DNA of 64,000 nucleotides from the IMG/VR virus record IMGVR_UViG_3300029732_000280; one strand, given 5' to 3'. How positions within the stretch are numbered: position 1 is the stretch's first letter; every line of letters begins with the position of its first letter. Position numbers and translations under genes: made by a program. Under the pieces are notes generated by a model that ran no database searches, was not told the origin of the DNA, and was given only the letters and a program-made list of their open reading frames with translations. Of this stretch, positions 4,048 to 59,364 are shown piece by piece. Source of the DNA: a virus (Duplodnaviria > Heunggongvirae > Uroviricota > Caudoviricetes).

Positions 4048-4389
4048 ATGGCTATTGATTATGAATCTTTAGGTAAACGTATCGCAAACGCACGTAAACA
4101 GACCGGAATCACACAGGAGGCTCTCGGTGAACAACTTAATATGACCCGAAAACACATCAGTGTTATCGAAACCGCCATTAATCGTCCCAGTCTTGATACA
4201 CTGGTTGATATTGCCAACGCACTAAATGTCTCAGCAGATGATCTTCTTGTAGACAGTTTGACGCACTCCGCATCCACTGCCGACTCCGAGATCCACCGTC
4301 TGCTTTTAGACTGTAATGCAATTGAGCAGGAGATTCTCACCCGGATGGTAAAGGAGATGAAAGCAATTTTATACGGCTTAGGAGTTTGA
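4048..4389 (+). CDS. XRE-family helix-turn-helix transcriptional repressor (CI-like, no peptidase domain).
   Basis: TQEALGEQLNMTRKHISVIETAINRPSLDTLVDIANALNVSADDLL is an HTH_3 signature. ATG with strong RBS, divergent from the ATPase operon with operators in between. Confidence 0.85.
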   Translation: MAIDYESLGKRIANARKQTGITQEALGEQLNMTRKHISVIETAINRPSLDTLVDIANALNVSADDLLVDSLTHSASTADSEIHRLLLDCNAIEQEILTRMVKEMKAILYGLGV

Positions 4390-4621
4390 TTTTATAACTT
4401 GTTGATCATATAACAAGAAGCCCGCATAAGCCACAACTGCACTTTGGAACACACCGAAGTGCTGTCTGTGGTTTATGCGGATAAGGACAAAAAAGAAGCC
4501 CACCAGCGTACCATGTAGGAATCTACACAATACGCCAGTGGGCCGATAAGTTTCAATTATGCACTTCTTTTCTCATCCAGTTCTTTTATCTCATCAACTG
4601 CAGACTTCTTAAATTCCTGTA

Positions 4622-5017
4622 TTATCTCTCTCCCCGCCTTAGACACCGATAAGCATCTTCGATAAAACTTATGAACTCCTCGCTGGCACACTCGATCAGG
4701 CATTTTCCATCCACGGCTTTCAACTTTTCAATAACCATTTCAGACAGTGCATTCCCATGCCCTCTCATCTTCTGAGTAGCAAACGCCACGGACTCATCGA
4801 TGAACGCAGCGTACTTTGCACCATCAATATTGCTTTGTACCGGCACGCCTTCGCCACTGTCAAGCCGGATCACTTTTGGCCCATACACAGCCCTCACCTT
4901 TCTCAGTGCCTCTGCCGGCTCCATGCTCTGGAGATATAATTTCATAGCACCGGCCGCCACAATCTCATCAGCTGTTGCACCATATTTTTCTGCCAGCATC
5001 CCAGCTACATCTTTCAT
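4622..5017 (-). CDS. Hypothetical protein (131 aa). True start is the ATG at 5017, not the GTG at 5026.
   Basis: RBS GAGGAG 8 nt upstream of ATG. Own promoter region containing a TATGTGTATTT x2 direct repeat. No recognisable domain. Confidence 0.45.
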   Translation of the reverse strand: MKDVAGMLAEKYGATADEIVAAGAMKLYLQSMEPAEALRKVRAVYGPKVIRLDSGEGVPVQSNIDGAKYAAFIDESVAFATQKMRGHGNALSEMVIEKLKAVDGKCLIECASEEFISFIEDAYRCLRRGER

Positions 5018-5162
5018 TCCAAACACTCCTCGCTATGTGTATTTTCTGTCGTATGTGTATTTCTCGCCACCCACAACATATAACAGGATTCTGCACATAG
5101 CAATCCTTACGGGTAAAAAAGACCAGACAAAAAACAGGCAAACTAGCAGCACAATAAAACCT

Positions 5163-5217
5163 TAAAAAACAAAAAAAGCCCTGCCAGATGCAGCCACAAA
5201 AGCCACACCCGGCAGGG
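5163..5217 (-). terminator. Rho-independent terminator after the second serine recombinase.
   Basis: Minus-strand hairpin GCCCTGCC...GGCAGGGC followed by TTTTTTTGTTTTTT. Confidence 0.75.
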
Positions 5218-5232
5218 TTCTGTCTCCTTTCA

Positions 5233-29370: not shown

Positions 29371-30210
29371 TTATTGAATTATACTCCATAAGAGCATTGT
29401 GCTCTCCATAATATCCTCATAGCTGATATCAGTAGCATACGGATATTTCTTCTGGTAGGACTTCCAAAGTGTATGTAACTGTGCGTCATCACTGACGGCA
29501 GCCATAATTTTGGGTGCTTCCTCTTTCAGATTTTCGGTGCTTCTTTTCTTACAGGTTGCCTCAAATGCCTTTTTCAGCACATCAGCATCGATGTCCTGCT
29601 CGTAAATAGAAAGCAGGGTCTTGATATCATAGAAGTCTCTCATTCGGGTATTCAAAAGACCTCTTGCAAGGACCGTCTGAAGTTTTTCTGCCAGAATTGT
29701 TTCCAAATTATACGACCAAAGGCTGATGGAACGGTCATCCAAGAGCAATTTATAGTTGTACTCGATTGCTCTTGGCGTGATAACATCTCCTGTAGAAATA
29801 TCAATCTTCATCGGTGTAACGAGTTTTCCCATCACGGCATTCATAGTAAACCGAATACCCGGATATTCCATTTCATCCATGATATTGGAAACTTCCTTAA
29901 CCTCAAAGGTCACTCCATCGCCAAGGTCGATGTCCTTGATTTCATCCACAATCCGTCTGGCATCTTCTGCCGACAGATTCTGATTTTTAATACTCGTATC
30001 GATATCCATCGTGGACCGCAATGCTACGCCAACCATTGCTGTCACCAGCATTCCGCCTTTGATGATAAAATTATCTTTATACTGCGAATTGGCAACTCTC
30101 TCAAGGAAACGCTCCATCATATAAATTCGCATGAGCGTTCTGGCATCTGCCTTGTTTTCCTTTGCCACATTCTTAATTCTTCCCTTAACCTGTTCAGGTG
30201 TCAGCTGCAT
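29371..30210 (-). CDS. abiEii: AbiEii-type nucleotidyltransferase toxin (type IV TA / abortive infection, DUF1814).
   Basis: FIIKGGMLVTAMVGVALRSTMDIDTS matches the GG..L....R.T.DID nucleotidyltransferase motif of AbiEii/AbiGii. Start is 1-2 nt after the AbiEi stop. Confidence 0.8.
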   Translation of the reverse strand: MQLTPEQVKGRIKNVAKENKADARTLMRIYMMERFLERVANSQYKDNFIIKGGMLVTAMVGVALRSTMDIDTSIKNQNLSAEDARRIVDEIKDIDLGDGVTFEVKEVSNIMDEMEYPGIRFTMNAVMGKLVTPMKIDISTGDVITPRAIEYNYKLLLDDRSISLWSYNLETILAEKLQTVLARGLLNTRMRDFYDIKTLLSIYEQDIDADVLKKAFEATCKKRSTENLKEEAPKIMAAVSDDAQLHTLWKSYQKKYPYATDISYEDIMESTMLLWSIIQ

Positions 30211-40908: not shown

Positions 40909-40995
40909 GGTCTGTATCCTCCGTGTGTTTTGTTTTCCGTAGGGCTTTCCCCTTCGTTGTGACTGTATATTACCGTCACTGCCCGGACATAGCAA
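40909..40995 (-). promoter_or_regulatory. Promoter-leader module copy A: TTGCTA-N17-TAATAT then a conserved ~60-nt 5'UTR (ACAGTCAC..CGAAGGGGAAAGCCC..GGAAAACAAAACACACGGAGGA).
   Basis: Seen directly. Family consensus described in findings. Confidence 0.6.
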
Positions 40996-41107
40996 GCGGC
41001 TATGCTGCACGATCATACACACCTCTTTTTGTCGGATTTATGTGTATTTCCACACTGGAAGAATCCACCACTACGAGCAAAAGCCCCCGAAGGAGCTCTG
41101 CCCTTTT

Positions 41108-41392
41108 TCAGTGTGCGTTCCTGATGCACCACTCGATTGCGTGACCGGCATCCGTGTAGGTCTCATCGGAAATCTTCAGAAGTTCCAGCCGGCATTCAAT
41201 CGGTGACCAGCCTTCCTCCGGGTCTTCCACAAAGCCGTATACCGCTCCCTCCAGCATGCCATTCCAGTTCATCTGGGCAACCAGAACCCGGTCACTGAAC
41301 TGCATGATGCTATCGTAGCAAGGTCTGAGCCGGTCGTAGAAGCTCTCGATGCTGATGTTGTTTTCCGGGAAGTCGATCAAATGCTTTTTCAT
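41108..41392 (-). CDS. Hypothetical acidic protein (94 aa), cassette 2.
   Basis: ATG with RBS GGAGGA. Preceded by module copy B and followed by a hairpin plus TTTTGC terminator. Confidence 0.5.
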   Translation of the reverse strand: MKKHLIDFPENNISIESFYDRLRPCYDSIMQFSDRVLVAQMNWNGMLEGAVYGFVEDPEEGWSPIECRLELLKISDETYTDAGHAIEWCIRNAH

Positions 41393-41478
41393 AGTGAATT
41401 CCTCCGTGTTTTCGTTTTTTCCTTGGGGCTTTCCCCTTTCGGTATGTGCATATTACCGTCAGGTGCAGCAGATAGCAA
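41393..41478 (-). promoter_or_regulatory. Promoter-leader module copy B: TTGCTA-N17-TAATAT then the TGCACATACCGAAAGGGGAAAGCCCC leader.
   Basis: Seen directly. Confidence 0.6.
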
Positions 41479-41527
41479 GCGGCTAAAGTACACGATCTTC
41501 TGCCCGGAATACCAAGCAGAATGTACA

Positions 41528-41734
41528 TCACTCTGCATCCTGTTCCATGAGTTCCACAATGGTATCGTAGAAGAACTGCGGGTCATATGCCAGCGGTTCC
41601 CGTCCGGCTTCCTTATCCATCCTGATCTGGTCTTCCACCATATCCTCGGCATCCTCCAGCGTAAAGGCATCCTTATCGCTGTCATCCATGTGGTTGTAGA
41701 TTTCCACGATGACATCCATCATCCGCTCTTCCAT
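41528..41734 (-). CDS. Hypothetical very acidic protein (68 aa, MEERMMDVIVEIYNHMDDSDKD...).
   Basis: ATG 41734 with RBS AAAGGAGAAG. No module copy upstream; instead a TGCCACCCGTGGCA palindrome and a GCCCCTGTGT direct repeat lie upstream. Confidence 0.45.
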   Translation of the reverse strand: MEERMMDVIVEIYNHMDDSDKDAFTLEDAEDMVEDQIRMDKEAGREPLAYDPQFFYDTIVELMEQDAE

Positions 41735-41864
41735 GTGCTTCTCCTTTCTGGCGCATCCACGCCGCCACATCTGCCCCTGTGTTGGACGTTGTCGGTTCAT
41801 TCGGATCGTTTTTTGCCACCCGTGGCACAAGCCCCTGTGTGGGGCTGTGTCGGGGGCTGTCGGT

Positions 41865-42056
41865 TTATCTGGTCATCCGTCCCAGCAGGTAGGCTTCTTC
41901 CATTGCTTTCTGGATGCCCCAGACCGGAACCTCAATGAAGTCCTCGCTGTCATTATCGCGGGCTTCGAGGTCGCCCCGGCTGTCTACCGCTGCCATCAGG
42001 CGCTTGGCGATCTCCAGCAGGGCTTTTTCCTCTTCCTTGGTGATGTTCTTCTTCAT
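41865..42056 (-). CDS. Hypothetical protein (63 aa), cassette 3.
   Basis: ATG with RBS. Preceded by module copy C. Confidence 0.45.
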   Translation of the reverse strand: MKKNITKEEEKALLEIAKRLMAAVDSRGDLEARDNDSEDFIEVPVWGIQKAMEEAYLLGRMTR

Positions 42057-42129
42057 GGTGGTTTCCTCCGTTTTTCTTGGTTTTCCGTTTCGGTATGTGC
42101 ATATTACCGTCTATGTCACACACTATCAA
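42057..42129 (-). promoter_or_regulatory. Promoter-leader module copy C: TTGATA-N17-TAATAT then the TGCACATACCGAAACGGAAAACC leader.
   Basis: Seen directly. Confidence 0.6.
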
Positions 42130-42226
42130 GCGGCTATACTACACAAATATGTTCCCCCGGAACTGTGCGTATTACGGCAGAAGAAAAGGGCCGCCGTTTC
42201 CGGCAAGCCCCATGTGTTTCTCTGGC

Positions 42227-42676
42227 TTAGTAGTCTTCATCGTCCTCGTAATCTTCCTCTTCGTCCCAGTCATCTTCCTCTTCATCCCAGCTGTCATCCT
42301 GGTCTTCTTCCTCATCTTCGAAGTCCCACATATCTTCAGTCGGCTGGTTTCTAAGGTCTGGGTTCTGCTCGACATAGTCGGCAACCGCTCCGCAAAGGAT
42401 GTCCAGAACCTTTTCGTAGGCTTCCTCGCTGTAGACTGCCCAGGCATCTGCAGTCAGCTTTGCGATTTTGTCGTTGCCCTTGACTCCAAGGAACCGCCCT
42501 GCAGGGTTGCAGGTTTCCTTGCCGTAGCCGATGCCCAGCTGGTCGCCATCGTTGTAAAAGCGGTATCCGATGCGGCTCATTGCCCTTACCAGCTCCCCTG
42601 CGAGGCTGTCTGCCTTGCCCGTCTCCGGTACCAGTTCCTTGAAAAGTTTATTGATGCGTTCTTCGTTCTTCGTCAT
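42227..42676 (-). CDS. Hypothetical protein (149 aa) with an extreme poly-acidic C-terminal tail (DEEEDQDDSWDEEEDDWDEEEDYEDDEDY), cassette 4.
   Basis: Start MTKNEERINK with RBS ACGGAGGA. The longer track ORF simply translates the leader (..SDGNIQ..). Confidence 0.5.
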   Translation of the reverse strand: MTKNEERINKLFKELVPETGKADSLAGELVRAMSRIGYRFYNDGDQLGIGYGKETCNPAGRFLGVKGNDKIAKLTADAWAVYSEEAYEKVLDILCGAVADYVEQNPDLRNQPTEDMWDFEDEEEDQDDSWDEEEDDWDEEEDYEDDEDY

Positions 42677-42749
42677 TGTCGTATCCTCCGTTTTTGTTGT
42701 TTTCCCCTTTCGGTGACTGTATATTACCGTCACCTCGGAGCACTATCAA
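42677..42749 (-). promoter_or_regulatory. Promoter-leader module copy D: TTGATA-N17-TAATAT then the ACAGTCACCGAAAGGGGAAAAC leader.
   Basis: Seen directly. Confidence 0.6.
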
Positions 42750-42878
42750 GCGGCTAAACTACACGATCATTCAATCCTGTAATTGTCATATTTATGTGCT
42801 TCTCATGCCAGCTTTCGGAAGACAGACACGAGCAAAAGGCTGGTCATTTCCAGCCCCTTGCGCCTGTCGGTCTTGCCT

Positions 42879-43139
42879 TTAGCGGATGATTTCAAGGTAG
42901 CTTACGTTGCCCCAGCAGTCCGTTCCCTTGAAGCGGATGCGCTTGTCGTTCTCCCTGTCGAGGGTGAATTTCCGCAGGAGCTTCATCTTCTGGATGCGGT
43001 TCAGAAGGTCCTTGCCGTTCTTCGCATCCTCAACGGCATCCCTGATCTCGACCACCGCGCTGTCGCTTCCGTACCAGAGGTTGCTGAGTGCCTCTGGAAT
43101 TCCGTTTGCAATGTAAAGGCTGATTTTTGTGTAGGTCAT
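42879..43139 (-). CDS. Hypothetical protein (86 aa), second gene of cassette 5.
   Basis: ATG with RBS GAGGAG, 11 nt after the upstream gene. Confidence 0.45.
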   Translation of the reverse strand: MTYTKISLYIANGIPEALSNLWYGSDSAVVEIRDAVEDAKNGKDLLNRIQKMKLLRKFTLDRENDKRIRFKGTDCWGNVSYLEIIR

Positions 43140-43150
43140 GTTTTTTCTCC

Positions 43151-43357
43151 TCAGAATGTCATCGTTTCCAGAATCTCATCCATGCCTGTCTCCCAGTCAT
43201 GGCAGCTAAGTTCGATTTTGCTGTACATCTCTGCGCTGTCCGGCTCATCGAAAAGCCGGAAGCATTCTCTTGCCAGCTCCTCGCTGGTGTGCTGCTGGAT
43301 TTCATCCGGCTGTCCATCCAGCCGTGTAAAGATAATCTCGTAAGTGTAGCGTTCCAT
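43151..43357 (-). CDS. Hypothetical acidic protein (68 aa), first gene of cassette 5.
   Basis: ATG with RBS AAAGGGG. Preceded by module copy E. Confidence 0.45.
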   Translation of the reverse strand: MERYTYEIIFTRLDGQPDEIQQHTSEELARECFRLFDEPDSAEMYSKIELSCHDWETGMDEILETMTF

Positions 43358-43416
43358 GTTCTTTGCCCCTTTCGTTTTGGTAGCTGTATATTACCGTCAC
43401 TGCCGGACACTATCAA
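43358..43416 (-). promoter_or_regulatory. Promoter-leader module copy E: TTGATA-N17-TAATAT with a shortened leader.
   Basis: Seen directly. Confidence 0.55.
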
Positions 43417-43497
43417 GCGGCTAAAGTACACGATCATCTGCGCCCTGAACTGGTGGATTTATGCGTTTATCCGGGGAAGTTTCCCTCCCCGTTTTTC

Positions 43498-43674
43498 TTA
43501 GCTGAACATCTCTGCCGTGTCATCGTCGATCCAGAGGTGCATGCCGTCTGCTTCCATGATTGCGTGGTCTTCATGAACCTCGGTGATGATTCCTTCCCGG
43601 CTTCCGCTACCATCGAATTCGTCCCAGTGCCATGTTGTCTTTCTTCCTTTTTTCCATGTTCTCCAATCAGCCAT
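43498..43674 (-). CDS. Hypothetical acidic protein (58 aa), cassette 6.
   Basis: Start MADWRTWKKG with RBS AAAGGAGGA. Preceded by module copy F. Confidence 0.45.
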   Translation of the reverse strand: MADWRTWKKGRKTTWHWDEFDGSGSREGIITEVHEDHAIMEADGMHLWIDDDTAEMFS

Positions 43675-43734
43675 TCTGCTGTCCTCCTTTGCTTTTTGTA
43701 GCTGTATATTACCGTCACTGCCCTGTGATAGCAA
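43675..43734 (-). promoter_or_regulatory. Promoter-leader module copy F: TTGCTA-N17(ending GACGG)-TAATAT with a short leader.
   Basis: Seen directly. Confidence 0.55.
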
Positions 43735-43804
43735 GGCCATAAAACCTCATATTATCAACGATCTTCGTCCCTCATGTTTGGTACATATATGACCCCTGAT
43801 TGAC

Positions 43805-43883
43805 TTGCTATATATGTGTTTCTGCGGCATTATACACACAACGAAAGCAAAGAAAACCAAACCAAAAACGGAGGACAAAAACC
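43805..43883 (+). promoter_or_regulatory. Promoter-leader module copy G on the plus strand (TTGCTATATATGTGTTTCTGCGG-CATTAT ... CAACGAAAGCAAAG...ACGGAGGA).
   Basis: Same architecture in inverted orientation. Drives the plus-strand gene at 43884. Confidence 0.55.
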
Positions 43884-44135
43884 ATGAAAAAGACCATTAC
43901 AGAAGTTGAAAACGCAATCGAAAACCGCATCGCAGAGCTTGAAGAAGAATACGAGCTGGACATTTACGACCGCAACGACATCCGAGAAGAAGAATACCAG
44001 AAAGCCGGATGGCGGCACGACCCTTTCCCAGAGGAACTTGAGGAAGAAGCCGAAGAAGAGGAAGAGGATTGGCACTACCACAGCATGGAGGAACGACTGA
44101 ACGAGGTCGGCATGAGCATGAGGGATTTCTTCTAA
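43884..44135 (+). CDS. Hypothetical very acidic protein (83 aa, EELEEEAEEEEEDWHYH).
   Basis: ATG with RBS ACGGAGGA. Followed by two plus-strand hairpin plus T-tract terminators (about 44148..44200 and 44224..44255). Confidence 0.5.
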   Translation: MKKTITEVENAIENRIAELEEEYELDIYDRNDIREEEYQKAGWRHDPFPEELEEEAEEEEEDWHYHSMEERLNEVGMSMRDFF

Positions 44136-44254
44136 GGAATCCCCAGAGGCTCCCCAGCAGAGGCTGGGGCTCTGCCTCGTATCCCCCGTTTTGGTTTGGT
44201 ATGATACACAAAACCGCTGCCAGATGTTTGTGTACATTATGGCGGCGGTTTTCC

Positions 44255-44330
44255 TTGCTATCGTTGCTTTCCAGAGGTAATATACAGTAAACTGGAAGGG
44301 GGTTCTCATTCTTTTGAGGCCCCCATTTTC
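44255..44330 (+). promoter_or_regulatory. Promoter module copy H on the plus strand (TTGCTA-N17-TAATAT) followed after ~15 nt by a GGGGG-N17-CCCCC hairpin plus ATTTTCC. No downstream ORF with an RBS. Possible short RNA or decaying copy.
   Basis: Seen directly. The downstream plus-strand ORF 44361..44861 lacks an RBS and is antisense to real minus-strand genes. Confidence 0.35.
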
Positions 44331-44333
44331 CGT

Positions 44334-44525
44334 CTAATCGGCTTCGCCCTGTATTGCCTGATGCATCACCCTGCGGTTATGCGCTCTGGCTTTCTTTTTC
44401 AGATTTCTTTTCCATCTGCGGATGGTCATCGCCTTGCAGTGATTTCTCGACCATTCGTATTCATCCAGAATGTATCTGCCGCCGTGTTCCCTCTCGCCAT
44501 AAGCAGGCATCTTCCTGTGTCCCAT
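44334..44525 (-). CDS. Hypothetical small basic protein (63 aa).
   Basis: ATG with RBS AGGAGGAG. Last gene of the GGCT-1 operon. Confidence 0.45.
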   Translation of the reverse strand: MGHRKMPAYGEREHGGRYILDEYEWSRNHCKAMTIRRWKRNLKKKARAHNRRVMHQAIQGEAD

Positions 44526-44596
44526 AGGCTCCTCCTGTTAAACCAAGCCCTCCCGGTCTTTTCTGGCCGAGAGGGTATTTTTCTGATTGTGCTATC

Positions 44597-44968
44597 TTAT
44601 TCCGGCTTCGTTCCGTCATCCATCTGGATGACTGCCATCTGCCCGAACATGCTGACGAATGCCTCCGGCACCCAGAAGCGTTCCCTGAATTTCTGGATGA
44701 GATCCTGGGGCAGCTCTGCGAAATCTTCCTCGCCCAATCCGCAGATGAAGAAGTTCCCCTTGATGGGCTGCTCCAGTTCCGGGATGTATCTGCTGAATGA
44801 CTTCTCAGTGAACAGCCCGTTGTCATCGGTGACCAGGGCGGCGCGTTCTTCCCACGGGTAGGTGGCTGTGATACAGTCGCAGTCGAGGATGCGGTAGAAC
44901 TCTTTCAGGGAGTTTTCAATGTCCACCACCTGCGGATGCTCCATCGGTTTGATCAGAAGAACCTTCAT
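44597..44968 (-). CDS. Hypothetical protein (123 aa), DUF3846-like N-terminus (MKVLLIKPMEHPQVVDIENSL...).
   Basis: RBS GAAAGGAGG. ATGA overlap with the upstream gene. Confidence 0.45.
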   Translation of the reverse strand: MKVLLIKPMEHPQVVDIENSLKEFYRILDCDCITATYPWEERAALVTDDNGLFTEKSFSRYIPELEQPIKGNFFICGLGEEDFAELPQDLIQKFRERFWVPEAFVSMFGQMAVIQMDDGTKPE

Positions 44969-45432
44969 TCGACCCAGCCTCCTTTCACGATTGCCCAGTC
45001 TGCAAGATGCATCTTCTGCTGTCCGCCCCATGCAATGTCCTCTAATGCTTCCTCCGTTCCGCAGCGGTTGCAGATCTGAATGGCCGCCCTTCGGCTGAGC
45101 GCCTGCTGCTGATGGTCGTAGCAGTCAGGCTTTGCTCCGCACCTGGGGCAACGTGGGCCGGTCTGTCGCGTTTTACCAAGGCGGTCGAGCGACACCTTGA
45201 CCTCGGCATCCGTTGCCACACGGTGGCAACTGTCCGCACCGTAGGCAACGTTCAGATGGCTTCCGGTATCCCAACTCACCAAGATGTTTCCGGCATCATC
45301 GACCCCGTTGCAGGTTCCCTGCGTTCCGATGGGCGGTGCCTGCCTGTCATCCATCTCATCGAGAACGATCCGGCATCCGACCGGGAACTCTTTTCTCAAC
45401 TTCTTGACCATTTTCTGATCTGCGAAATTCAT
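44965..45432 (-). CDS. Hypothetical Cys-rich (zinc-ribbon-like) protein (155 aa).
   Basis: CPRCGAKPDCYDH...ICNRCG motifs. RBS GAGGAGGTG. 4-nt overlap with GGCT-1. Confidence 0.45.
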   Translation of the reverse strand: MNFADQKMVKKLRKEFPVGCRIVLDEMDDRQAPPIGTQGTCNGVDDAGNILVSWDTGSHLNVAYGADSCHRVATDAEVKVSLDRLGKTRQTGPRCPRCGAKPDCYDHQQQALSRRAAIQICNRCGTEEALEDIAWGGQQKMHLADWAIVKGGWVE

Positions 45433-45908
45433 GCCTGCACCTCCTCGATCATCTGCTGGGCGGCATCCTTATCCATGCATTCCTTCAGCGCACCTTCGAG
45501 GATGTGCATCGGGAAGTGGAATGCCTTGTAGCCGTCATGCAAAACTTTGTAGTAATACCGGCTCGGTGCGCGGTGTCCGAAGTCATTCTCCATGATATAT
45601 ACCATTGCGGTCACCATCTCCGGTTCTGCCCCTTCCCGGAGCAGTTCGATGTTCAGGTCTTCCTTGCGGTAGTAGTTCGGGTAGCCCTCATAGAGGTCGA
45701 GGTTTCCTTCGTCTCTTTCCGAGATCTCCCACACCAGAACCGGCGTGTTCTTCTTCGGGTTCGGTGCGATGGTGGCGCAGCCGCGGAACAAAAGCTCCCA
45801 GCCGGCCAGCACCGCCTGCCCTGCAATTTTTGCATCCGGGCATCGGTCTGCCATCTGCTCCACCGACAGGTTGCTGCCGTAGGCGATGTAATATTTCTTG
45901 TTCTTCAT
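45429..45908 (-). CDS. GGCT/AIG2-like (gamma-glutamyl cyclotransferase fold) protein, paralog 1.
   Basis: N-terminal YYIAYGSNLSVEQMADRCP matches the YxAYGSNL motif of GGCT-like enzymes. Preceded by module copy I. Confidence 0.6.
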   Translation of the reverse strand: MKNKKYYIAYGSNLSVEQMADRCPDAKIAGQAVLAGWELLFRGCATIAPNPKKNTPVLVWEISERDEGNLDLYEGYPNYYRKEDLNIELLREGAEPEMVTAMVYIMENDFGHRAPSRYYYKVLHDGYKAFHFPMHILEGALKECMDKDAAQQMIEEVQA

Positions 45909-45985
45909 TTGAATCTCTCCCTTCGGTTTTCTCCGCTCTTGTCTGGCGGTATGGTATATATCACTCTTCTGCCCTGATTTATCAA
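45909..45985 (-). promoter_or_regulatory. Promoter-leader module copy I, diverged: TTGATA-N17-GATATAT then ACCATACCG..GGAGAAAACCGAAGGGAG.
   Basis: Seen directly. Confidence 0.5.
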
Positions 45986-46038
45986 GGCCGATGAGCATCA
46001 TATACTGCACAATGTTTTTTGCTTTTGATCGTGTACTC

Positions 46039-46560
46039 TTACATCATCTGCCGCTTCTTCAGATACCGGATGGCTTCCGCCCTTCCGATACTGGCTGCCA
46101 GTCCACGCTTCAGTGTGTCCAGCGGAAACTCCCAGTCGCTGTATCCGCCCTGCAGCAGTTCAAAATACTCGGCATCCGGGCAGCCAAGCCGCCGGTCCTC
46201 GTGCATCACATAAGCGATGCAGGGCTTTGCCTTTTTCATGCGGTTCCCGTTCAGGTTCCAGACCGGAAGCTGGAACTGCTTCTTGTAGTAGTATCGTGGG
46301 CAGCCCTCGTACCGGTCCAGCAGGAGTTCATCGTATTCCGAGAGTTTCCAGACCACCGCAGGTACGCTTTCATTGGCATCCTGCTCGATGGTGGCATAGC
46401 AGCCGGTCTTGCTCTTTTTGAACAGAAGCCGGTAGCCCTTGATCTCGGTCGTGCCGACCACCACAGCGTAGGGGCATCTCTTTCCCATCCGCTCCATGTC
46501 GAGGTTGCTTCCGTAGGCAAGATAATATCTGGATGGGACTCGGCTGATCAACTCAAACAT
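46039..46560 (-). CDS. GGCT/AIG2-like protein, paralog 2.
   Basis: RYYLAYGSNLDMERMGKRCP motif. Start overlaps the stop of the upstream 78-aa gene by 8 nt. Confidence 0.6.
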   Translation of the reverse strand: MFELISRVPSRYYLAYGSNLDMERMGKRCPYAVVVGTTEIKGYRLLFKKSKTGCYATIEQDANESVPAVVWKLSEYDELLLDRYEGCPRYYYKKQFQLPVWNLNGNRMKKAKPCIAYVMHEDRRLGCPDAEYFELLQGGYSDWEFPLDTLKRGLAASIGRAEAIRYLKKRQMM

Positions 46561-46789
46561 CTGCCTCACCGTCCTCCCTGCCAGTGAATTCCACGCCCTG
46601 GAAATCCTCTGTCCCAAGCTCGATCTGGCTGTCCTGCCACCAGTCCTCTGCCACACGCTGTGCTTCCTCCACGGTCGGCTCTTTCATCTCGGATTCATAA
46701 ATGGTCACCGTTCTCTGGTAGGTCTCGGTGATGGTCACCTTAAAGGTTCTGCCACCCGGTGTGTTTTCATTTTTTAACGTGCTTTTCAT
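46553..46789 (-). CDS. Hypothetical small protein (78 aa) between the amidoligase and GGCT-2.
   Basis: ATG with RBS GAAGGAGGTG. Translationally coupled to GGCT-2. Confidence 0.45.
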   Translation of the reverse strand: MKSTLKNENTPGGRTFKVTITETYQRTVTIYESEMKEPTVEEAQRVAEDWWQDSQIELGTEDFQGVEFTGREDGEADV

Positions 46790-46856
46790 AGACCTGCACC
46801 TCCTTCTACCACCTCAAGGGCGGTTGCCCGCCCAAAAGGTGCCCGTGCATCCCGGC

Positions 46857-47795
46857 TTATTTGTTCCGCCAGGATGCGTTGCCCTCCATGTTCCGCAGAA
46901 GGATTTCCCTTGCCGTTGCAAATTCATCCCCGATGAATCCCAGCCTCAGCATCCAGCACCGCATCGCATACTTTTCATTGTCGGTCTGCTGGGGCTTTGG
47001 GCTTGCCGTCCTGACCATCTTGGCAAGCTGGCTCATTGCGAGGCAAAGCTGGATATAGGCTTTCATCTCACCGGCGTGCAGTCCGTTGCGCTTTCCGTCC
47101 GCTGGGTCTGCGAATTGGAAAAGGCGGAATTCAATGGTCCCTTTTGTAAAGGTGGCATGGAGGTTCAGCATATGGTACCGGCTTGAATTGTAGTGGGCAT
47201 TCCGGTTTTCCCAGCTGGAACCGTTGCCTTCGTACCAAATGTCTTCCAGCTTGCGCATGGTGGTCGGCTTCTCGCGGTTCAGCCGGTCGAGGAAGCGATG
47301 GTTGACCACCTGGCAATATTGTCCGGTGCGCCCTGCATCGATTCGGATGGCTCTGCCGATCTGCTGTTCGTGCGCCGCCATGATATTCACAAGGTTGCGG
47401 ATGGTCTTTGCGGTGTGGTCGCCTTTGCCGATGTGGATGTGAACCCCGCATCCGCGGCTTGGGCCGCTCTTTGCGCCTGCCTTTCGGAGCAGTCGGATAA
47501 TCTCCTGCAGGGTTTCGATGTCGTCGTAGGTGAGGATCGGGGTGACCAGTTCGCATTTTTCTGCGTCCGGTCCGTAGATGCTCACATCCCTCTGGAATTT
47601 CCAAACCCTGCCCTGTCCATCCTTGCAAGCCCAGCTGTAATATCCGTACTCGCTGGCCGCGTTCCATGCTCTGGTTCCGAAGTACTCGGCGACCTTTCTT
47701 GCCGCTTTTTCTCTGGTGATGTTGTTCATCTCGATCTCAACCCCGATGGTCTGGTTCTTCATGGCTTCAATCTGCTCTCTTGTTTTATCGTTCAT
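46857..47795 (-). CDS. Amidoligase (glutamine-synthetase-like carboxylate-amine ligase fold, Amidoligase_2-like), 312 aa.
   Basis: IGVEIEM (E-x-E strand) and GCGVHIHIGKGD (H-x-H) motifs typical of GS-like/GCS2-like amidoligases. Firmicute-type neighbourhood with AIG2/GGCT-like genes. Start ATG 47795. Confidence 0.55.
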   Translation of the reverse strand: MNDKTREQIEAMKNQTIGVEIEMNNITREKAARKVAEYFGTRAWNAASEYGYYSWACKDGQGRVWKFQRDVSIYGPDAEKCELVTPILTYDDIETLQEIIRLLRKAGAKSGPSRGCGVHIHIGKGDHTAKTIRNLVNIMAAHEQQIGRAIRIDAGRTGQYCQVVNHRFLDRLNREKPTTMRKLEDIWYEGNGSSWENRNAHYNSSRYHMLNLHATFTKGTIEFRLFQFADPADGKRNGLHAGEMKAYIQLCLAMSQLAKMVRTASPKPQQTDNEKYAMRCWMLRLGFIGDEFATAREILLRNMEGNASWRNK

Positions 47796-47880
47796 GGTAT
47801 GTTCTCCTTTGTTTTTTCCTTGTTTTCCCTTTCGGTATGTGCATATTACCGTCATTACCGTCAGGTGCGGATAATAGCAA
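47796..47880 (-). promoter_or_regulatory. Promoter-leader module copy J: TTGCTA...GACGGTAAT GACGGTAATAT (9-bp internal duplication) then the TGCACATACCGAAAGGGAAAAC leader.
   Basis: Seen directly. Confidence 0.55.
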
Positions 47881-48036
47881 GGATATAAAAGAACATATAT
47901 TCGACAAATATAAGGCAGAATGATCGTGTACATTTCTGCAGTTTTTCCGCTTGATAATATACATTTTCAGAGCTAATATCGGTACAATGGAAGAGGGTCT
48001 CGCATATTTTCCGGCCCCCATTGGGGGATTGGGAGC

Positions 48037-49221
48037 TTACGCTCCCGCCTCCAGCATCTGCGCCGTGTCTGCCCCACAATCGGGCTGTGTCGGCTGGTTT
48101 TCTTCCTGTTCGACCGTTTCCCCTGTGGCAGGATCGCCGTTCTGTGCCGCCAGTTTCGCGGCTTTCAGGGCATCCCGTTTTGCCTTTTCCCTTGCAAGGA
48201 ACTTCTGTGCTTCCTCATCCGTGCGGAAAGCCGCATGGCCGGAAAGGTTCTCCATGAGGATCTTGCGTGTCTCTTTGAAATCCGGACCGTTCATCCCCAG
48301 CCGCAGGAGCCATGTGCGGAGTGCGTATTTCTCATTCTCATCGTTGACATCCTTTGCCTGGATGCGCTTCTGGCTGATAGCCTGCTGGTTCATCAGCACC
48401 GCCAGCTGTGCAAAAGCCGTCAGATGTTCGTGGTCCGGTGCAGTCGGGAAGCCGGTAAAGGTGACCTTCTCGGTGGTGATCTTCAGGCCTTCCAGTGCAG
48501 CACCATGTTCAGTCTCATAGTCGCTGACCGCATTGATGAAGTTCATGATGGCAAAGGTGCAGCTATCGTCCTTCAGCTTCTCGACCAGCCCCTCTTCCAC
48601 ATGGAAGTGTCCTCCAGTCGCCTTGCCGATGAGCTTGCCGCGGCTGTAAAGAAGGTTGACCAGGTTGCGGAGTGTCACACCGTTGTGCTGGCTGACCGGG
48701 AATGCAAGTTCCAAGTCCAGCGGCACCTCTTCCGGCTGATCTTCTGTCTCCTGCGATTCTGCATCCGGCTCATCCTCTATGGTATCATCCTCAGCCGTAT
48801 TGTCCGGCTCCAATGCATCCTCGGCTCCTGCTTCCGCAGGTTCATCTTCTGCGGTATCTGCATCTTCGGATTCCTGCTCGTCCAGAACCTCCAGCTCTGC
48901 TTCGGGCATCTGCTCAGTTTCCGCTTCGGTCACAGGCTCCTCATCCATATCCGCTGTCAGCTCTGTGTCCTCCGGCTGGTCATCCGTGCTCTCAATACTC
49001 TCGCCGCCGCGGATCAGTCCCTCATTCAGCAGGGTCGTCAGCAGCTCGGCATCTGCATTCTCCGGCTCGACCAGAAGGTTGCCATTCCGGTCGATGGTGT
49101 AGCTCCCGATGTCGTAAGAATACAGAGGTGCTTTGGTATAGTAAGGGTGGATGCCGGTCAGCTCCTCCATGCGTTTTGCGAGGGTCTTTCTCTCGGCTAC
49201 GTTCAGTTTAAATTTCAACAT
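48037..49221 (-). CDS. Hypothetical 394-aa protein: unknown N-terminal domain, a ~100-aa poly-acidic linker, and a C-terminal region homologous to the amidoligase C-terminus.
   Basis: NDENEKYALRTWLLRLGMNGPDFKETRKILMENL here, compared with TDNEKYAMRCWMLRLGFIGDEFATAREILLRNM in the amidoligase. Preceded by module copy K. Confidence 0.5.
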   Translation of the reverse strand: MLKFKLNVAERKTLAKRMEELTGIHPYYTKAPLYSYDIGSYTIDRNGNLLVEPENADAELLTTLLNEGLIRGGESIESTDDQPEDTELTADMDEEPVTEAETEQMPEAELEVLDEQESEDADTAEDEPAEAGAEDALEPDNTAEDDTIEDEPDAESQETEDQPEEVPLDLELAFPVSQHNGVTLRNLVNLLYSRGKLIGKATGGHFHVEEGLVEKLKDDSCTFAIMNFINAVSDYETEHGAALEGLKITTEKVTFTGFPTAPDHEHLTAFAQLAVLMNQQAISQKRIQAKDVNDENEKYALRTWLLRLGMNGPDFKETRKILMENLSGHAAFRTDEEAQKFLAREKAKRDALKAAKLAAQNGDPATGETVEQEENQPTQPDCGADTAQMLEAGA

Positions 49222-49444: not shown

Positions 49445-51694
49445 TTATTCTTCCAGACCTGCACACCACGCGATGCCGGCCAGAACAAAGAATGCGTTGG
49501 CTAAGCAAATGCCGTTGCCCCAGATACGGTACTCTGCCGAATCCGTATATGGGTCAGCCAGCCATTTCCGGATCTGCTTCTCCGTCTTCGGCTTCTTGGC
49601 ATGGGTCACGATCTTACGGTGTGTTTCAAACACATCCGCCCAGAACGCCAGATCTTCCTCGGTTGGGTTTTCCGTTCCGAGATCTCTGCACCACCAGTCA
49701 GGGAATCCCTGCAGTCTGGCACACTCGGTCGGTGTCAAACGGCGGACGGTATAGGTCACAGGTGCGGGCTGTGCTTCCGGATTGTCGATGACCAGACGGT
49801 CATTGAAGGCATCCTGCCCGTTGAAGCCGCTGGGATGTGCCCCGGTTACCACGGTTCCCATGACACCCTCGTTCAGATGCGGCACCGGTGCGATAGTGGT
49901 TGGGTCTTTGTAGTCCCGTGCCATCAGGGTCGGTGCGACTTCTTTTGCCACCTGCATATAGGAGCCGGTGGTCATGGCATACACATCCTCCGGTGCGCAG
50001 ACTGCATGGCGGTCAGTGGCATCCAGTGTAAAGCAGACATCCTCATTGACGCCATCCCCCTGCGGACCGTTCTCATCCTTGCGGCCGATCATGTTGCCCT
50101 GCAGGACGAAGGTCTGCATCTGGTCACTCCGGGTCGCCATCAAAGCGCCGGATTTGCCATGCAGATCGATCAGCTCATTGCGCTGGTTCACATGGAACGC
50201 AGTCATCTCTTCCGGCTGTGCCACAAAGGTCTGCTGCTTCATCCCCGGCTCTGCTGCCAGTGCCGCTGACTTCTCTCCCAGATCCCTGACTTCATCCCTC
50301 TGATTCTGGGTAAAGGCGACCGGCTCTACCACACAGATGCCGCCCTGATTGCAGGTCGGGTCACCACCGCTGCGGTCCAGTGTCCGGGAGGTCTCCGCTT
50401 CATAGAAACCGCTATGCGGATTGTCGGACATCATGGAGTGGCTGGCTTTGGAGCAGACACCATAGCATTTCGGAACGAACAGTGTCTGGTCGTTATTGCA
50501 GCCGAGTGTGGCAGATTTTTCTTCCTGCCAAATGGCTCCCTTGCCGCCACCCTCGCAACCGGAACGGATCTTCAGCGTGACTGCCGGGGAGTTTTCAACT
50601 TCTTTCACCGGACTTTCCACTGAATTTTCAACAGCGTCTATGACCATCGGGACATTACCGCCACCTGTACCGCACCGGCTTGTCAGTGTCTGCACCTTAC
50701 CATCCTCGGAAATCTTCACCCGGCTGTCAGCAGGATGATTTTCCAGTGCGATGGCGGCAGGCACAACACCAGCCCGGAGGGTCGGTGAGCGTTCCTCCTC
50801 GTATCCGATGCTTCTGGCATCTGCCGAATGCTCGGTACAGAAACCGGCAGCTTCTAGAACACACGGCTGATGTCCATGCTCCTCTGCCCGGAGGGTACCG
50901 GTCACATCCTGGGAAACATCCATCTGCTTACCGCCCTGGTCGTTCAGACAGATCCGCCCTCCTGCTCCGCTGAAGCCTGCCTCTCCAGTGCCGCTTTCAG
51001 CACCGGCGGCAGCTCTTTGCCACGCATGGAAGCCCTCCGCAGAATACCGAGACACGCCTTCGGACTCAAATAGTACCTTTGGGGCACTCTGGTCTGCAAA
51101 ATCTGCGACAAGGTAGATACGTTTTCTTCTTTGGGGAACGCCCCACCATTGTGCATCAAGAACTCGATACGCGACGCTCCATCCGTCTCCCACGTAGTAG
51201 TCAGCGTCGGGCCATCCTTTCTTCTCAGGCGCAGGCACCGAGGCGGACGGTTCTTTAACACCGATGACTGCTTCGAGGACTGCTTTGAAGTCCTGCCCTT
51301 TGTTTGAGGAGAAGGCCCCTGGCACATTCTCCCACACGATAAATCTTGGTTTTTCTCCATTGGTCTTACACCTCATTTCTTTCACGATTCGGATTGCTTC
51401 GTAAAACAGACTGGACCGTGAACCATCCAGACCGTCCCGCTTACCGGCGATGGACATATCCTGACAGGGACTGCCAAAGGTGATGATGTCCACAGGCGGC
51501 AGGTCTGCGCCGCTGATGGCGGATACATCTCCGTAGTGCCTCACCTGTGGCAGACGTTTGGTCGTGACCCGGATGGCAAAGGGCTCGATCTCGCTGCTCC
51601 ACAGCGGAGTGATCTGCCCGGTCAACAGACCGCCCAATGGAAAACCCCCGGAGCCATCAAAGAGGCTGCCGAGGGTCAACTGTTTATTCTCCAT
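49445..51694 (-). CDS. DNA (cytosine-5)-methyltransferase, 749 aa, with an unusually long variable region (multispecific-like).
   Basis: Motif I LFDGSGGF, motif IV GSPCQDMS, motif VI FIVWENVPG, motif VIII QRRKRIYLV, C-terminal RLQGFPDWW. About 450 aa lie between motifs VIII and IX. Confidence 0.9.
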   Translation of the reverse strand: MENKQLTLGSLFDGSGGFPLGGLLTGQITPLWSSEIEPFAIRVTTKRLPQVRHYGDVSAISGADLPPVDIITFGSPCQDMSIAGKRDGLDGSRSSLFYEAIRIVKEMRCKTNGEKPRFIVWENVPGAFSSNKGQDFKAVLEAVIGVKEPSASVPAPEKKGWPDADYYVGDGWSVAYRVLDAQWWGVPQRRKRIYLVADFADQSAPKVLFESEGVSRYSAEGFHAWQRAAAGAESGTGEAGFSGAGGRICLNDQGGKQMDVSQDVTGTLRAEEHGHQPCVLEAAGFCTEHSADARSIGYEEERSPTLRAGVVPAAIALENHPADSRVKISEDGKVQTLTSRCGTGGGNVPMVIDAVENSVESPVKEVENSPAVTLKIRSGCEGGGKGAIWQEEKSATLGCNNDQTLFVPKCYGVCSKASHSMMSDNPHSGFYEAETSRTLDRSGGDPTCNQGGICVVEPVAFTQNQRDEVRDLGEKSAALAAEPGMKQQTFVAQPEEMTAFHVNQRNELIDLHGKSGALMATRSDQMQTFVLQGNMIGRKDENGPQGDGVNEDVCFTLDATDRHAVCAPEDVYAMTTGSYMQVAKEVAPTLMARDYKDPTTIAPVPHLNEGVMGTVVTGAHPSGFNGQDAFNDRLVIDNPEAQPAPVTYTVRRLTPTECARLQGFPDWWCRDLGTENPTEEDLAFWADVFETHRKIVTHAKKPKTEKQIRKWLADPYTDSAEYRIWGNGICLANAFFVLAGIAWCAGLEE

Positions 51695-58513: not shown

Positions 58514-59164
58514 TTAGACCTCCTTCCTGCTGTATACAGTGTTGCTGCCGTAATTGGCATTGCTGCCGCGCACAGCATTTTCGTCTGTATTTTGTTTGTT
58601 TTTCTTAGTACTGTGCATATCAAACTGTCTTGCCACAGCCTGTTCAATCTCCTGCTTTTTCTCAGCAGAGATCACCCTGCAAAGGCGTCCAAACAGTGCC
58701 GACTGGTCGATCGTTGTGATCTGCTCGACCAGCAAAATGGAATCCTCCAGTCGTTCCGCTCTGAGCATCTCACAATGTGCTTCTGTCAGCACGATATGTG
58801 TTGGCAGGTCGAGCTTTTTCATCTTGCTCGTAAGCGGAATAACTGTGAAGGTCTGCGAATAACGGTTCGCAATATCGTTTGTCAGGATCAGCACCGGACG
58901 GTTCCCACTCTGCACACAGGTGCCATAATGGTTACCAAGCTCTGCAAACCAGATCTCATACTGCTTCGGGATTCTGGTCGTCGGCCAGTTGTAAGCGGGG
59001 AAGCTGTCATAAGTTGTGTGGCTGCTTTCCTGCTGCTTTTCGGTGCTGTGGTTATGCGTGGCGGCGCTTTTATGCTTGGTGCAGCCACGCTTGTTGATGT
59101 ACTTGTTCACATGGATCTTCCTGCCACGCGGCAGAATCCGTGCGTTGCTTTTCTTTCTCCCCAT
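58514..59164 (-). CDS. MazF/PemK-fold protein with a ~100-aa basic N-terminal extension.
   Basis: YEIWFAELGNHYGTCVQSGNRPVLILTNDIANRYSQTFTVIPLTS fits the MazF/PemK G..RP.LV.S.D....V.P.T pattern. Start ATG 59164 with RBS GAGGTG. Confidence 0.55.
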   Translation of the reverse strand: MGRKKSNARILPRGRKIHVNKYINKRGCTKHKSAATHNHSTEKQQESSHTTYDSFPAYNWPTTRIPKQYEIWFAELGNHYGTCVQSGNRPVLILTNDIANRYSQTFTVIPLTSKMKKLDLPTHIVLTEAHCEMLRAERLEDSILLVEQITTIDQSALFGRLCRVISAEKKQEIEQAVARQFDMHSTKKNKQNTDENAVRGSNANYGSNTVYSRKEV

Positions 59165-59364
59165 TCTGGATTTCACCTCTTCTCTCCTGATACAAAAACA
59201 GCCGTTCGGAATCCGAATCCGTGACGGCATAACATGTAAAAAGCGGATAAAAATACCGGGCAGCTTTCGCTCCCAGCACTCTTATCCGCTCCCGGTTTTA
59301 TCTTATTTTCCTAGTATAAAGTATAGCAAAAAGCCGATGTACGCATAAGAAGCAGTTTTCCTAA

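Follow-up and report, generated by a model that had tools for sequence, protein, structure and literature searches.

Neighbourhoods in which an amidoligase of the Amidoligase_2 family (PF12224) stands next to an AIG2-like or gamma-glutamyl cyclotransferase (GGCT) gene were reportedly predicted in Firmicutes phages and plasmids by Iyer, Abhiman, Burroughs and Aravind in 2009. The initial annotation of the locus described here held that no such system had been characterised, and our literature searches agree: for the amidoligase-GGCT pair they returned annotations or speculation only and no experimental report, and for Amidoligase_2, structure and literature searches found no solved or characterised member. 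The prediction is more than 15 years old, and we found no report of the pair's function; once a single member is understood, thousands of phage genes would gain an annotation, and an unrecognised route by which phages change host metabolism or immunity might come to light. An ATP-dependent gamma-glutamyl ligase followed by a later remover is known from PuuA/PuuD, which act on putrescine, and from BtrJ/BtrG, which handle the protecting group of butirosin; BtrG has the GGCT fold.

We analysed a 64,000-nucleotide stretch of viral DNA (the window), in which every open reading frame of the initial annotation is present on the minus strand, with unchanged coordinates. The central gene (46857–47795, minus strand) encodes a 312-residue protein assigned by Pfam and PHROGs to the carboxylate-amine ligases related to glutamine synthetase and glutamate-cysteine ligase (GS/GCL). 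The motifs first taken as signs of an amidoligase, IGVEIEM and GVHIHIG, are present in its translation, and the Amidoligase_2 profile is matched at full length (positions 1–244 of 245, E 7.7e-55, 186.9 bits against a cut-off of 22), as is phrog_2443 (1e-104). The AlphaFold model (pLDDT 96) matches solely GS/GCL enzymes, in keeping with the fold that had been proposed, and points to a glutamine-synthetase-like catalytic fold; identity to the solved relatives is 9–16%, and sequence search detected no relative of solved structure even at E ≤ 10. The active-site residues (ExE strand, E82, HxH, R206 and ExR) are all present, and they are at least 90% conserved among 69 diverse homologs (35–87% identity). 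With a GS/GCL fold and near-invariant catalytic residues, the amidoligase looks active. At its C-terminus it carries an extra three-helix module, common to the 394-residue paralog discussed below; a Pfam search with this module was negative up to E ≤ 10.

Directly upstream of the amidoligase start lies a repeated promoter-like or 5'UTR element of ∼130 nt (47800–47925, minus strand; nhmmer E 4e-22), which is one of seven strong minus-strand copies found by nhmmer and belongs to families D2, D4 and D6 of the repeat search. Its core reads TTGCTA .. TAATAT .. ACCGAAAGGG .. RBS, the copy at the amidoligase has a 9-nt duplication (GACGGTAAT), and an Rfam search gave no hit there. Within the module nhmmer places a strong copy upstream of the amidoligase only. 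Separate promoter cassettes had also been proposed for the second GGCT gene and the 394-residue paralog; these are weak look-alikes by eye, for which nhmmer and a sigma-70 scan were both negative.

Two GGCT/AIG2-like paralogs follow, as initially described from YYLAYGSNL and YYIAYGSNL in the translations. GGCT_A (46039–46560, minus strand, 173 residues) and GGCT_B (45429–45908, minus strand, 159 residues) score 36.9 and 44.0 bits against a Pfam cut-off of 22.8 (PF06094), with matches to GGACT at 6e-9 and 4e-11 and to phrog_2520 at 8.5e-37 and 2.1e-41, respectively; GGCT_B also matches AIG2_2. The two are paralogs of each other (34% identity, E 4e-31). GGCT_B matches human GGCT (2pn7, E 1.2e-4), whose catalytic E98 aligns to the motif LYEG. 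In human numbering, YGSN, E98-G99, Y105, Y125 and Y139 are kept in 19/19 orthologs of GGCT_A and 20/20 of GGCT_B, so that YGSN and the Glu98 equivalent are found in 39/39 sequences. Both proteins look active as gamma-glutamyl cyclotransferases. Their true starts are likely 46560 for GGCT_A, not 46656 of the frame 46039–46656, and 45908 for GGCT_B, not 46010 of the frame 45429–46010.

A 78-residue DpnD/PcfM-like protein (46553–46789, minus strand; Pfam 6.5e-7) is encoded between the amidoligase and GGCT_A in most loci of the window type, and its stop overlaps the GGCT_A start by 8 nt. The protein first noted as Cys-rich belongs to DUF4314 (44965–45432, minus strand; Pfam 1.9e-27, phrog_3782 and phrog_2945) and ends in a Cys-rich, zinc-ribbon-like CxxC..CxxC tail, and the DUF3846-like protein was likewise recovered (44597–44968, minus strand, 123 residues from MKVLLIK; Pfam 7.5e-23). 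The DUF3846 gene, which is found in most window-type loci, likely starts at 44968 and not at 45031 of the frame 44597–45031. ATGA overlaps join GGCT_B to the DUF4314 gene and the DUF4314 gene to the DUF3846 gene. Last comes a basic 63-residue protein (44334–44525, minus strand), which matches no Pfam or PHROGs family and has homologs only in the closest relatives (L002–L004). After it, a stem-loop (44289–44335, minus strand; RNAfold −18.7 kcal/mol, z −2.84) is a possible terminator at the block end, with a weak U-tract and no call by the terminator scan. None of the eight module proteins was matched by NCBIfam or by the PADLOC defence-system search, and no signal peptide or membrane protein is evident on reading their sequences.

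The 394-residue protein (48037–49221, minus strand) had been described as sharing the C-terminal module of the amidoligase and carrying an acidic linker. Both features are there, the latter as a disordered acidic insert of ∼105 residues (63–167), and the protein ends in a Lys/Ala-rich helix; however, its homology is not confined to the C-terminal module. It matches phrog_2443 over residues 2–345 (6.9e-39) and is therefore a whole diverged paralog; hhalign aligns it with the amidoligase family at 99.8% probability (E 3.8e-30), while Pfam gives no significant match, and none to Amidoligase_2 at E ≤ 0.01. Its structure model was built from an alignment mixed with amidoligases and is biased toward their fold. 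In place of the active site, ExE has become K/K, HxH is lost, the 187–213 block is deleted and E222/R224 have become T/T. Because these residues are lost across 17 paralogs, we regard the protein as a full-length but catalytically dead amidoligase paralog, a pseudoenzyme.

How firmly are these genes tied to one another? A GGCT gene lies downstream of the amidoligase in 36/36 related loci with enough downstream sequence to be counted (23/23 genome and 13/13 viral loci), spanning 99% to ∼40% identity. The profile matches to Amidoligase_2 and to GGCT/AIG2, which the initial annotation had proposed to seek by HMM search, and the conservation of the neighbourhood in related phages are thus both found. 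In the clade L032–L050 the enzyme pair is inverted as one cassette with the neighbouring genes unmoved: amidoligase and GGCT are inherited and have moved together. Annotations show the pair in two unrelated phages as well, Bacillus phage 035JT001 and Geobacillus phage GR1. An amidoligase is found without a recognisable GGCT in FP_Taranis, where the two genes after it have no Pfam match, and in a Porphyromonas phage; the ligase can therefore work without a GGCT. Arthrobacter phage Salgado has a different partner, a protein with a glutamine-amidotransferase domain, in keeping with what the Pfam note on PF12224 reportedly describes. Scans of viral contigs with a diverse alignment (A1) and two distant homologs gave nothing usable. 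The enzyme pair is very common: close homologs number over 8000, a single cluster at 90% identity contains 3767 sequences, and the family comprises 4556 clusters at 50% identity.

Other members of the block behave differently. Streptococcus phage Javan630 carries the 394-residue paralog and DUF4314 without the enzyme, and both there and in L032–L050 DUF4314 pairs with the paralog and not with the enzyme. Because the two are found without the enzyme, and stay fixed in place when the enzyme pair is inverted, they belong to the phage backbone and not to the enzyme pair. Of the three cassettes first thought to co-occur, the linkage of enzyme and GGCT stands, but they do not form one obligate system, the paralog being separable.

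The element is a siphovirus-type prophage, that of a temperate Clostridia gut phage related to Ca. Heliusvirales, with genes for terminase, portal, ClpP, capsid, tape measure and lysin. Ca. Heliusvirales have nine marker genes (PMC9226167), of which TerL, portal, Clp protease, major capsid and an SNF2-like helicase are present; DUF2800, DUF2815, PolA and VRR-NUC were not found in the window and may lie past its end or in unscanned frames. In the phage collection, the genomes with the best amidoligase matches and the same gene order (PV0364xx) carry a Ca. Heliusvirales label. High prevalence in human guts has been reported for this heliusvirus-like lineage (PMC9226167, PMC11283538); the papers describing it do not mention the enzyme pair, nor does the polyvalent-protein paper mention the amidoligase/GGCT module families. 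A conjugative element, suggested by the PcfM, DUF3846 and DUF4314 domains, was ruled out by the phage genes and the absence of T4SS genes. The module lies between SAM-synthetase/DNA-methylase genes (SAM synthetase, a ParB-N6/N4 methylase and a 749-residue C5 methylase) and the terminase, and the prophage also encodes AbiEii and a MazF-like protein. The accessory island of anti-defence cassettes first proposed is thus a prophage segment between methylases and terminase, its anti-defence character being suggested only by neighbours (an Nmad4 domain, DUF6900 and small acidic frames).

What would such a pair do? The gamma-glutamyl chemistry of the ligase and the GGCTs is predicted by analogy with their superfamilies. 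The ligase would spend ATP on converting the gamma-carboxylate of glutamate to an acyl-phosphate and would then couple it to an amine, the likeliest partner being a small molecule (amino acid, polyamine or other amine metabolite); in the GGCT reaction the free alpha-amino group of the glutamyl moiety would attack the gamma-amide, releasing the amine and 5-oxoproline. Together the enzymes would form a write/erase cycle for gamma-glutamylation, and if both shared one compound the net reaction would be glutamate + ATP → 5-oxoproline + ADP + Pi. A ligase and the enzyme that undoes its work would be futile in one operon unless substrates or timing differ, and the cycle does not account for two conserved GGCT paralogs; these points, like the amidoligases of FP_Taranis and the Porphyromonas phage that lack a recognisable GGCT, speak against it. 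The dead paralog, with its acidic disordered insert, may serve as a binding or decoy subunit.

On balance we lean, by a modest measure, toward an accessory module in which an active-looking ligase and two cyclotransferases run a gamma-glutamyl write/erase cycle, with the dead paralog in the backbone. Counter-defence, exclusion of other phages and metabolic takeover are candidate benefits to the phage. Against this reading, the tight embedding among DNA methylases and SAM synthetase could hint at a nucleic-acid-related role. It is quite improbable, in our estimate, that the three enzymes write and erase gamma-glutamyl groups on a macromolecule of the host or on a messenger of immunity or stress (a polyamine, say, a signal with an amine group or a lysine of a protein), with the acidic pseudo-ligase as decoy or adaptor; if true, this would be a new class of phage counter-defence or prophage-encoded defence in a lineage that ranks among the most prevalent phages of the human gut.

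The futility could itself be the purpose: with ligase and GGCTs on the same amine, glutamate and ATP would be turned into 5-oxoproline, poisoning or reprogramming the cell in abortive infection, superinfection exclusion or host takeover. No simpler net reaction can be written for the two conserved enzymes, and the combination of glutamate-cysteine ligase and GGCT overproduces 5-oxoproline in glutathione-synthetase deficiency. The inverted, separately transcribed, moron-like pair of L032–L050 and the AbiEii and MazF-like toxin/defence genes fit as well. We nevertheless judge this reading unlikely: there is no sign of a regulator or of antitoxin-like control, a lytic phage (035JT001) retains the pair too, a second GGCT would be unnecessary, and PADLOC found no match. 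Pup-like tagging, raised in the initial annotation, would attach a small protein (the 78-residue protein or the paralog with the acidic insert), through a C-terminal or side-chain glutamate, to lysines on proteins of the host or the phage, and the GGCTs would take the tag off again. That seems a long shot, since the C-termini of the 78-residue family vary (the window copy ends GEADV) with no conserved Gly-Gly-Gln/Glu, the 63-residue protein is restricted to the closest relatives, and the nearest folds are small-molecule ligases and not PafA/Dop.

The module follows directly after the SAM synthetase and the two methylases, the L022/L026 pair lies between a weakly C5-methylase-like frame and a SAM synthetase, a gene with an Nmad4 ('nucleotide modification associated') domain lies close by, and amidoligase-domain genes co-occur with thymidine-hypermodification genes in viral contigs (PMC8989533). 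All this would suit a ligase that decorates a DNA base or nucleotide with a group of the amino-acid type as anti-restriction self-protection. Against it, a Pfam scan of the frames, several small ones of which match no family, revealed no enzyme generating 5-hmdU or 5-hmC, no base kinase, no (aGPT-)pyrophosphorylase and no TET/JBP, and the Bacillus and Geobacillus phage pairs have no annotated methylase within ∼3.5–4 kb on each side. GGCTs are not known to act in DNA-modification pathways, and we consider this reading very unlikely. Least credible is an action on the cell envelope, in which the ligase would change an amine or carboxylate of peptidoglycan or of a receptor and so leave lysogens resistant to the adsorption of other phages: the module is carried by a temperate phage, but it lacks an evident signal peptide or membrane protein and any Mur-ligase-like or lipid-II-related partner, and the possibility, raised for phage amidoligases with reference to Iyer et al. 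2009, is purely speculative in its source (PMC11318856).

Set beside known systems, the favoured write/erase cycle would share its ligase-then-remover logic with PuuA/PuuD and BtrJ/BtrG. Unlike the phage pair, however, these use a GATase-like hydrolase (PuuD) and an ATP-grasp enzyme (BtrJ), and the phage module is without their oxidase, ACP or transferase partners. Compared with glutamate-cysteine ligase or YbdK (GCS2) and the gamma-glutamyl cycle, the phage ligase is only 9–13% identical, is much smaller at 312 residues and has the extra C-terminal three-helix module, and the phage has no glutathione synthetase. PafA/Dop pupylation differs in its Pup tag with a conserved C-terminus and its proteasome context, neither of which accompanies the phage module with its cyclotransferase partner, and Dop keeps its active site, whereas the phage paralog has lost it. 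In contrast, the neighbourhoods of the 2009 prediction, PF12224 and phrog_2443 with phrog_2520 share with our locus the full-length ligase family, the GGCT partner, the Firmicutes phage host type and the predicted gamma-glutamyl or peptide-bond chemistry; nothing essential is different here. Since both the Pfam note and PHROGs already record the pairing, the module is not new as a sequence finding: it is a real and very common example of a known, uncharacterised pairing. To the 2009 prediction our evidence adds that the GGCT comes as two conserved paralogs, that a dead ligase paralog bears an acidic insert, that the position before the terminase is fixed in heliusvirus-like phages and that the enzyme pair moves as a cassette.

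Every gene of the module (44334-49221) lies on the minus strand, and the translations contain the motifs quoted in the initial annotation, which had described an amidoligase accompanied by two GGCT/AIG2-like paralogs. Translations and profile searches bear out this description far beyond chance, with significant matches to both families: the 312-aa ligase (46857-47795) covers the entire Pfam Amidoligase_2 profile (E 7.7e-55) and matches PHROGs phrog_2443, 'amidoligase enzyme' (1e-104), while the ORFs of GGCT_A (46039-46656) and GGCT_B (45429-46010) match GGACT/AIG2 in Pfam and phrog_2520, 'gamma-glutamyl cyclotransferase', in PHROGs. Pfam also assigns the 78-aa protein PcfM78 (46553-46789) to DpnD/PcfM, a protein with a Cys-rich tail (44965-45432) to DUF4314, and the product of 44597-45031 to DUF3846; it gives no significant match for the 63-aa (44334-44525) and 394-aa (48037-49221) proteins, and NCBIfam matches none of the eight module proteins. 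A PDB sequence search with the ligase detected no relative. An exhaustive homolog search returned 4556 clusters at E ≤ 1e-3, and this high abundance makes the family a good target for experiments; from that search we took an alignment of 69 homologs (35-87% identity), which yielded an AlphaFold2 model with pLDDT 96.3 and pTM 0.94.

The two cyclotransferase-like proteins share 34% identity (E 4e-31), and their duplication is older than the divergence of the ligases to roughly 61-73% identity. Alignment of GGCT_B with human GGCT (2pn7; E 1.2e-4) places the catalytic Glu98 at the E of LYEG. Because the equivalents of Y22-G23-S24-N25, E98-G99, Y105, Y125 and Y139 are all kept in 19 GGCT_A and 20 GGCT_B orthologs, both paralogs look catalytically competent.

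Our genome scan gave 27 loci with ligase identities from 99% down to 40%, and a GGCT directly follows the ligase in all 23 that have downstream sequence. Most loci show the order ParB-methylase, C5-methylase, paralog, amidoligase, PcfM-like, GGCT_A, GGCT_B, DUF4314, DUF3846, ..., TerS, TerL, portal. A clade of viral contigs (L032-L050) is arranged differently: Portal <- TerL <- TerS <- ParB-methylase on the left is followed on the right by amidoligase -> three small ORFs -> GGCT ->, then <- DUF4314 <- paralog <- SAM synthetase. Here the ligase-GGCT pair forms a single inverted cassette and the backbone retains the paralog and DUF4314; GGCT is present in 13/13 loci with sufficient downstream sequence. 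In one contig of this clade (L045), an ORF just upstream of the inverted pair and on the same strand (4125-5444, +) shows, by eye, a Fic-type HPFADGNGR motif. Beyond these loci, an amidoligase has a GGCT close by in two unrelated phages, Bacillus phage 035JT001 and Geobacillus phage GR1; the ligase partner in an Arthrobacter phage is a glutamine-amidotransferase-domain protein, and in a Porphyromonas phage and FP_Taranis no partner of the amidoligase was recognisable. The Pfam family note agrees with this pattern. Thus the core functional unit is ligase plus GGCT.

The 394-aa protein is homologous to the ligase (hhalign probability 99.8%, E 3.8e-30), and its residues 2-345 match phrog_2443 (6.9e-39). 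In the 17 paralogs compared, the ExE strand has become K/K, HxH is gone, the W187..H213 block is deleted and E222/R224 are replaced by T/T; on these substitutions we regard the protein as a pseudoenzyme, with binding, decoy or mimic as candidate roles. It is separable from the ligase-GGCT pair, because Streptococcus phage Javan630 carries it alongside DUF4314 yet lacks both ligase and GGCT (a 195-aa, apparently dead paralog and a short DUF4314 protein, 4644-5617 of that locus), and because it is missing from loci at 40% ligase identity that have the pair. Its family carries the annotation 'virulence-related protein' in streptococcal phages, as do the Javan630 genes, where an experimental basis for the label is not evident.

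How might this pair of enzymes work? By analogy, we lean slightly toward a two-step reading, the best supported of those considered, in which the ligase would use ATP to gamma-glutamylate an amine, a small molecule being the likeliest candidate, and the GGCTs would free the amine again with formation of 5-oxoproline. Consistent with this, the nearest folds to the ligase model are small-molecule ligases, and all known GGCT-fold enzymes act on small gamma-glutamyl compounds; moreover, the partner seen instead in other phyla comes from a family whose members include thiol hydrolases that cleave gamma-glutamyl bonds. Should the two activities share one substrate, Glu and ATP would in net terms be converted futilely to 5-oxoproline; this might in itself be what the pair is for, though we think it unlikely.

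Pup-like protein tagging, which the initial annotation had favoured, is weakened by our results to a distinctly unlikely option: the tag C-terminus expected of such a system is not conserved, small proteins and paralog alike can be separated from the ligase and GGCT, and the folds of PafA and Dop are more distant from the ligase model than those of small-molecule ligases. Only the methylase, SAM-synthetase and Nmad4 neighbours, together with a remark in PMC8989533, point to DNA or nucleotide modification; no precursor-generating enzyme was found among the ORFs scanned, and we give this proposal little credence. Envelope modification, an idea drawn solely from cited speculation, seems the most improbable.

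A repeated element of ~130 nt (..AGCCGC TTG(C/A)TA N17 TAATAT .. ACCGAAAGGGG .. RBS) occurs in seven strong minus-strand copies (nhmmer E 1e-22 to 1e-32), each immediately 5' of a small gene: one lies before the ligase (47800-47925) and six before small cassettes at 40.9-43.8 kb (span 40922-43792). Weak plus-strand copies lie at 43742-43873, 44204-44289 and 47889-47957; one precedes the only plus-strand gene (ATG at 43884), and that at 44204-44289 is oriented so as to read antisense into the terminal part of the 63-aa gene. The element has no Rfam match; it may act as a promoter or regulator site specific to the phage, or mark a hotspot of cassette exchange. Separate promoters had been proposed for the second and third cassettes, a claim that loses ground here: the regions before GGCT_B and the 394-aa gene resemble the element by eye only and were detected by neither nhmmer nor a sigma-70 scan. 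PcfM78 and GGCT_A overlap by 8 nt, and GGCT_B/DUF4314 and DUF4314/DUF3846 overlap at ATGA; judged from this layout, the three pairs are probably translationally coupled. A stem-loop 3' of the 63-aa gene has z -2.84; that 3' of the 394-aa gene is not significant. A strong GC-rich hairpin without a U-tract (46800-46845, -; -30.3 kcal/mol, z -2.2) separates the ligase stop codon from the ribosome-binding site ahead of the 78-aa ORF and may serve in mRNA processing, stability or attenuation. Among the small cassettes, two, at 41108-41392 (-) and 41865-42056 (-), have family matches, to Nmad4, 'nucleotide modification associated domain 4' (5.6e-19), and DUF6900 (6.7e-19); a relative named Nmad5 is reported as an anti-Tmn protein (PMC11846954). 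The remaining small ORFs have no family match, and several are strongly acidic, among them 42227-42733, which carries a tail of poly-Asp/Glu.

The window is a siphovirus-type prophage. Its minus-strand order runs SNF2 helicase, MazF-like protein, D5-type primase-helicase; SAM synthetase, ParB_N-N6/N4 methylase, 749-aa C5 methylase; the module, then about seven small cassettes; TerS, TerL, portal, ClpP, capsid; AbiEii gene, 1984-aa tape measure, tail proteins, lysin and three large serine recombinases (975-2807, 5233-7533, 7568-9928). A conjugative island was rejected in view of the terminase, portal, ClpP, capsid, tape-measure and lysin genes and the lack of T4SS genes. The AbiEii nucleotidyltransferase toxin gene (29371-30210, -; E 6.3e-42), within the structural/tail module, and a PemK/MazF toxin domain in a 238-aa protein adjoining the primase (58514-59230, -) may both represent defence or addiction genes carried by the prophage. 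Between the lysin gene and one recombinase gene lies a drum RNA (RF02958; 10229-10340, +; 91.9 bits against a gathering score of 43, E 3.3e-16). The Pfam match of the C5 cytosine methylase (49445-51694, -) falls in three separate stretches, which suggests a large insertion, and the protein is possibly a multispecific phage enzyme with several target-recognition domains.

Three isolate assemblies, of Blautia faecis, Faecalibacterium intestinale and Clostridium fessum, which we take to represent at least two bacterial families, contain a near-identical phage (94-97% nucleotide identity to window 36.8-58.5 kb over about 19-21 kb; ligase 98-99%). The explanation is either an exceptionally wide range of hosts or contamination/mis-assignment. 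In a phage collection, the top amidoligase matches (60-67% identity) are PV0364xx genomes labelled Ca. Heliusvirales, with identical gene order; the two papers defining this group mention the methylase and SAM synthetase, not amidoligase or GGCT. Module B of C. difficile Tn6164 has a matching order: SAM synthetase, N4/N6 methylase, 'virulence-related protein', amidoligase, AIG2/GGCT, terminase.

The finding stands: the module is well conserved and makes enzymatic sense. Its kind is already known: Iyer and colleagues are said to have predicted a ligase-AIG2 neighbourhood in Firmicutes phages in 2009, annotations of Pfam and PHROGs record the pairing, and phage genomes are routinely annotated with such genes, so that the discovery itself is not novel and its presence would not surprise a specialist. 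PADLOC has no model for the module, and our literature search found no biochemical or genetic characterisation of the pairing; what has been claimed about function is all speculative ('AMGs for nitrogen metabolism', PMC10945688; 'host metabolism, phage defence', PMC11318856). To this known kind we add two conserved, active-looking GGCT paralogs, an acidic, apparently dead paralog that is a separable gene of the backbone, the behaviour of ligase and GGCT as one cassette, and the prevalence of the module in heliusvirus-like gut phages.
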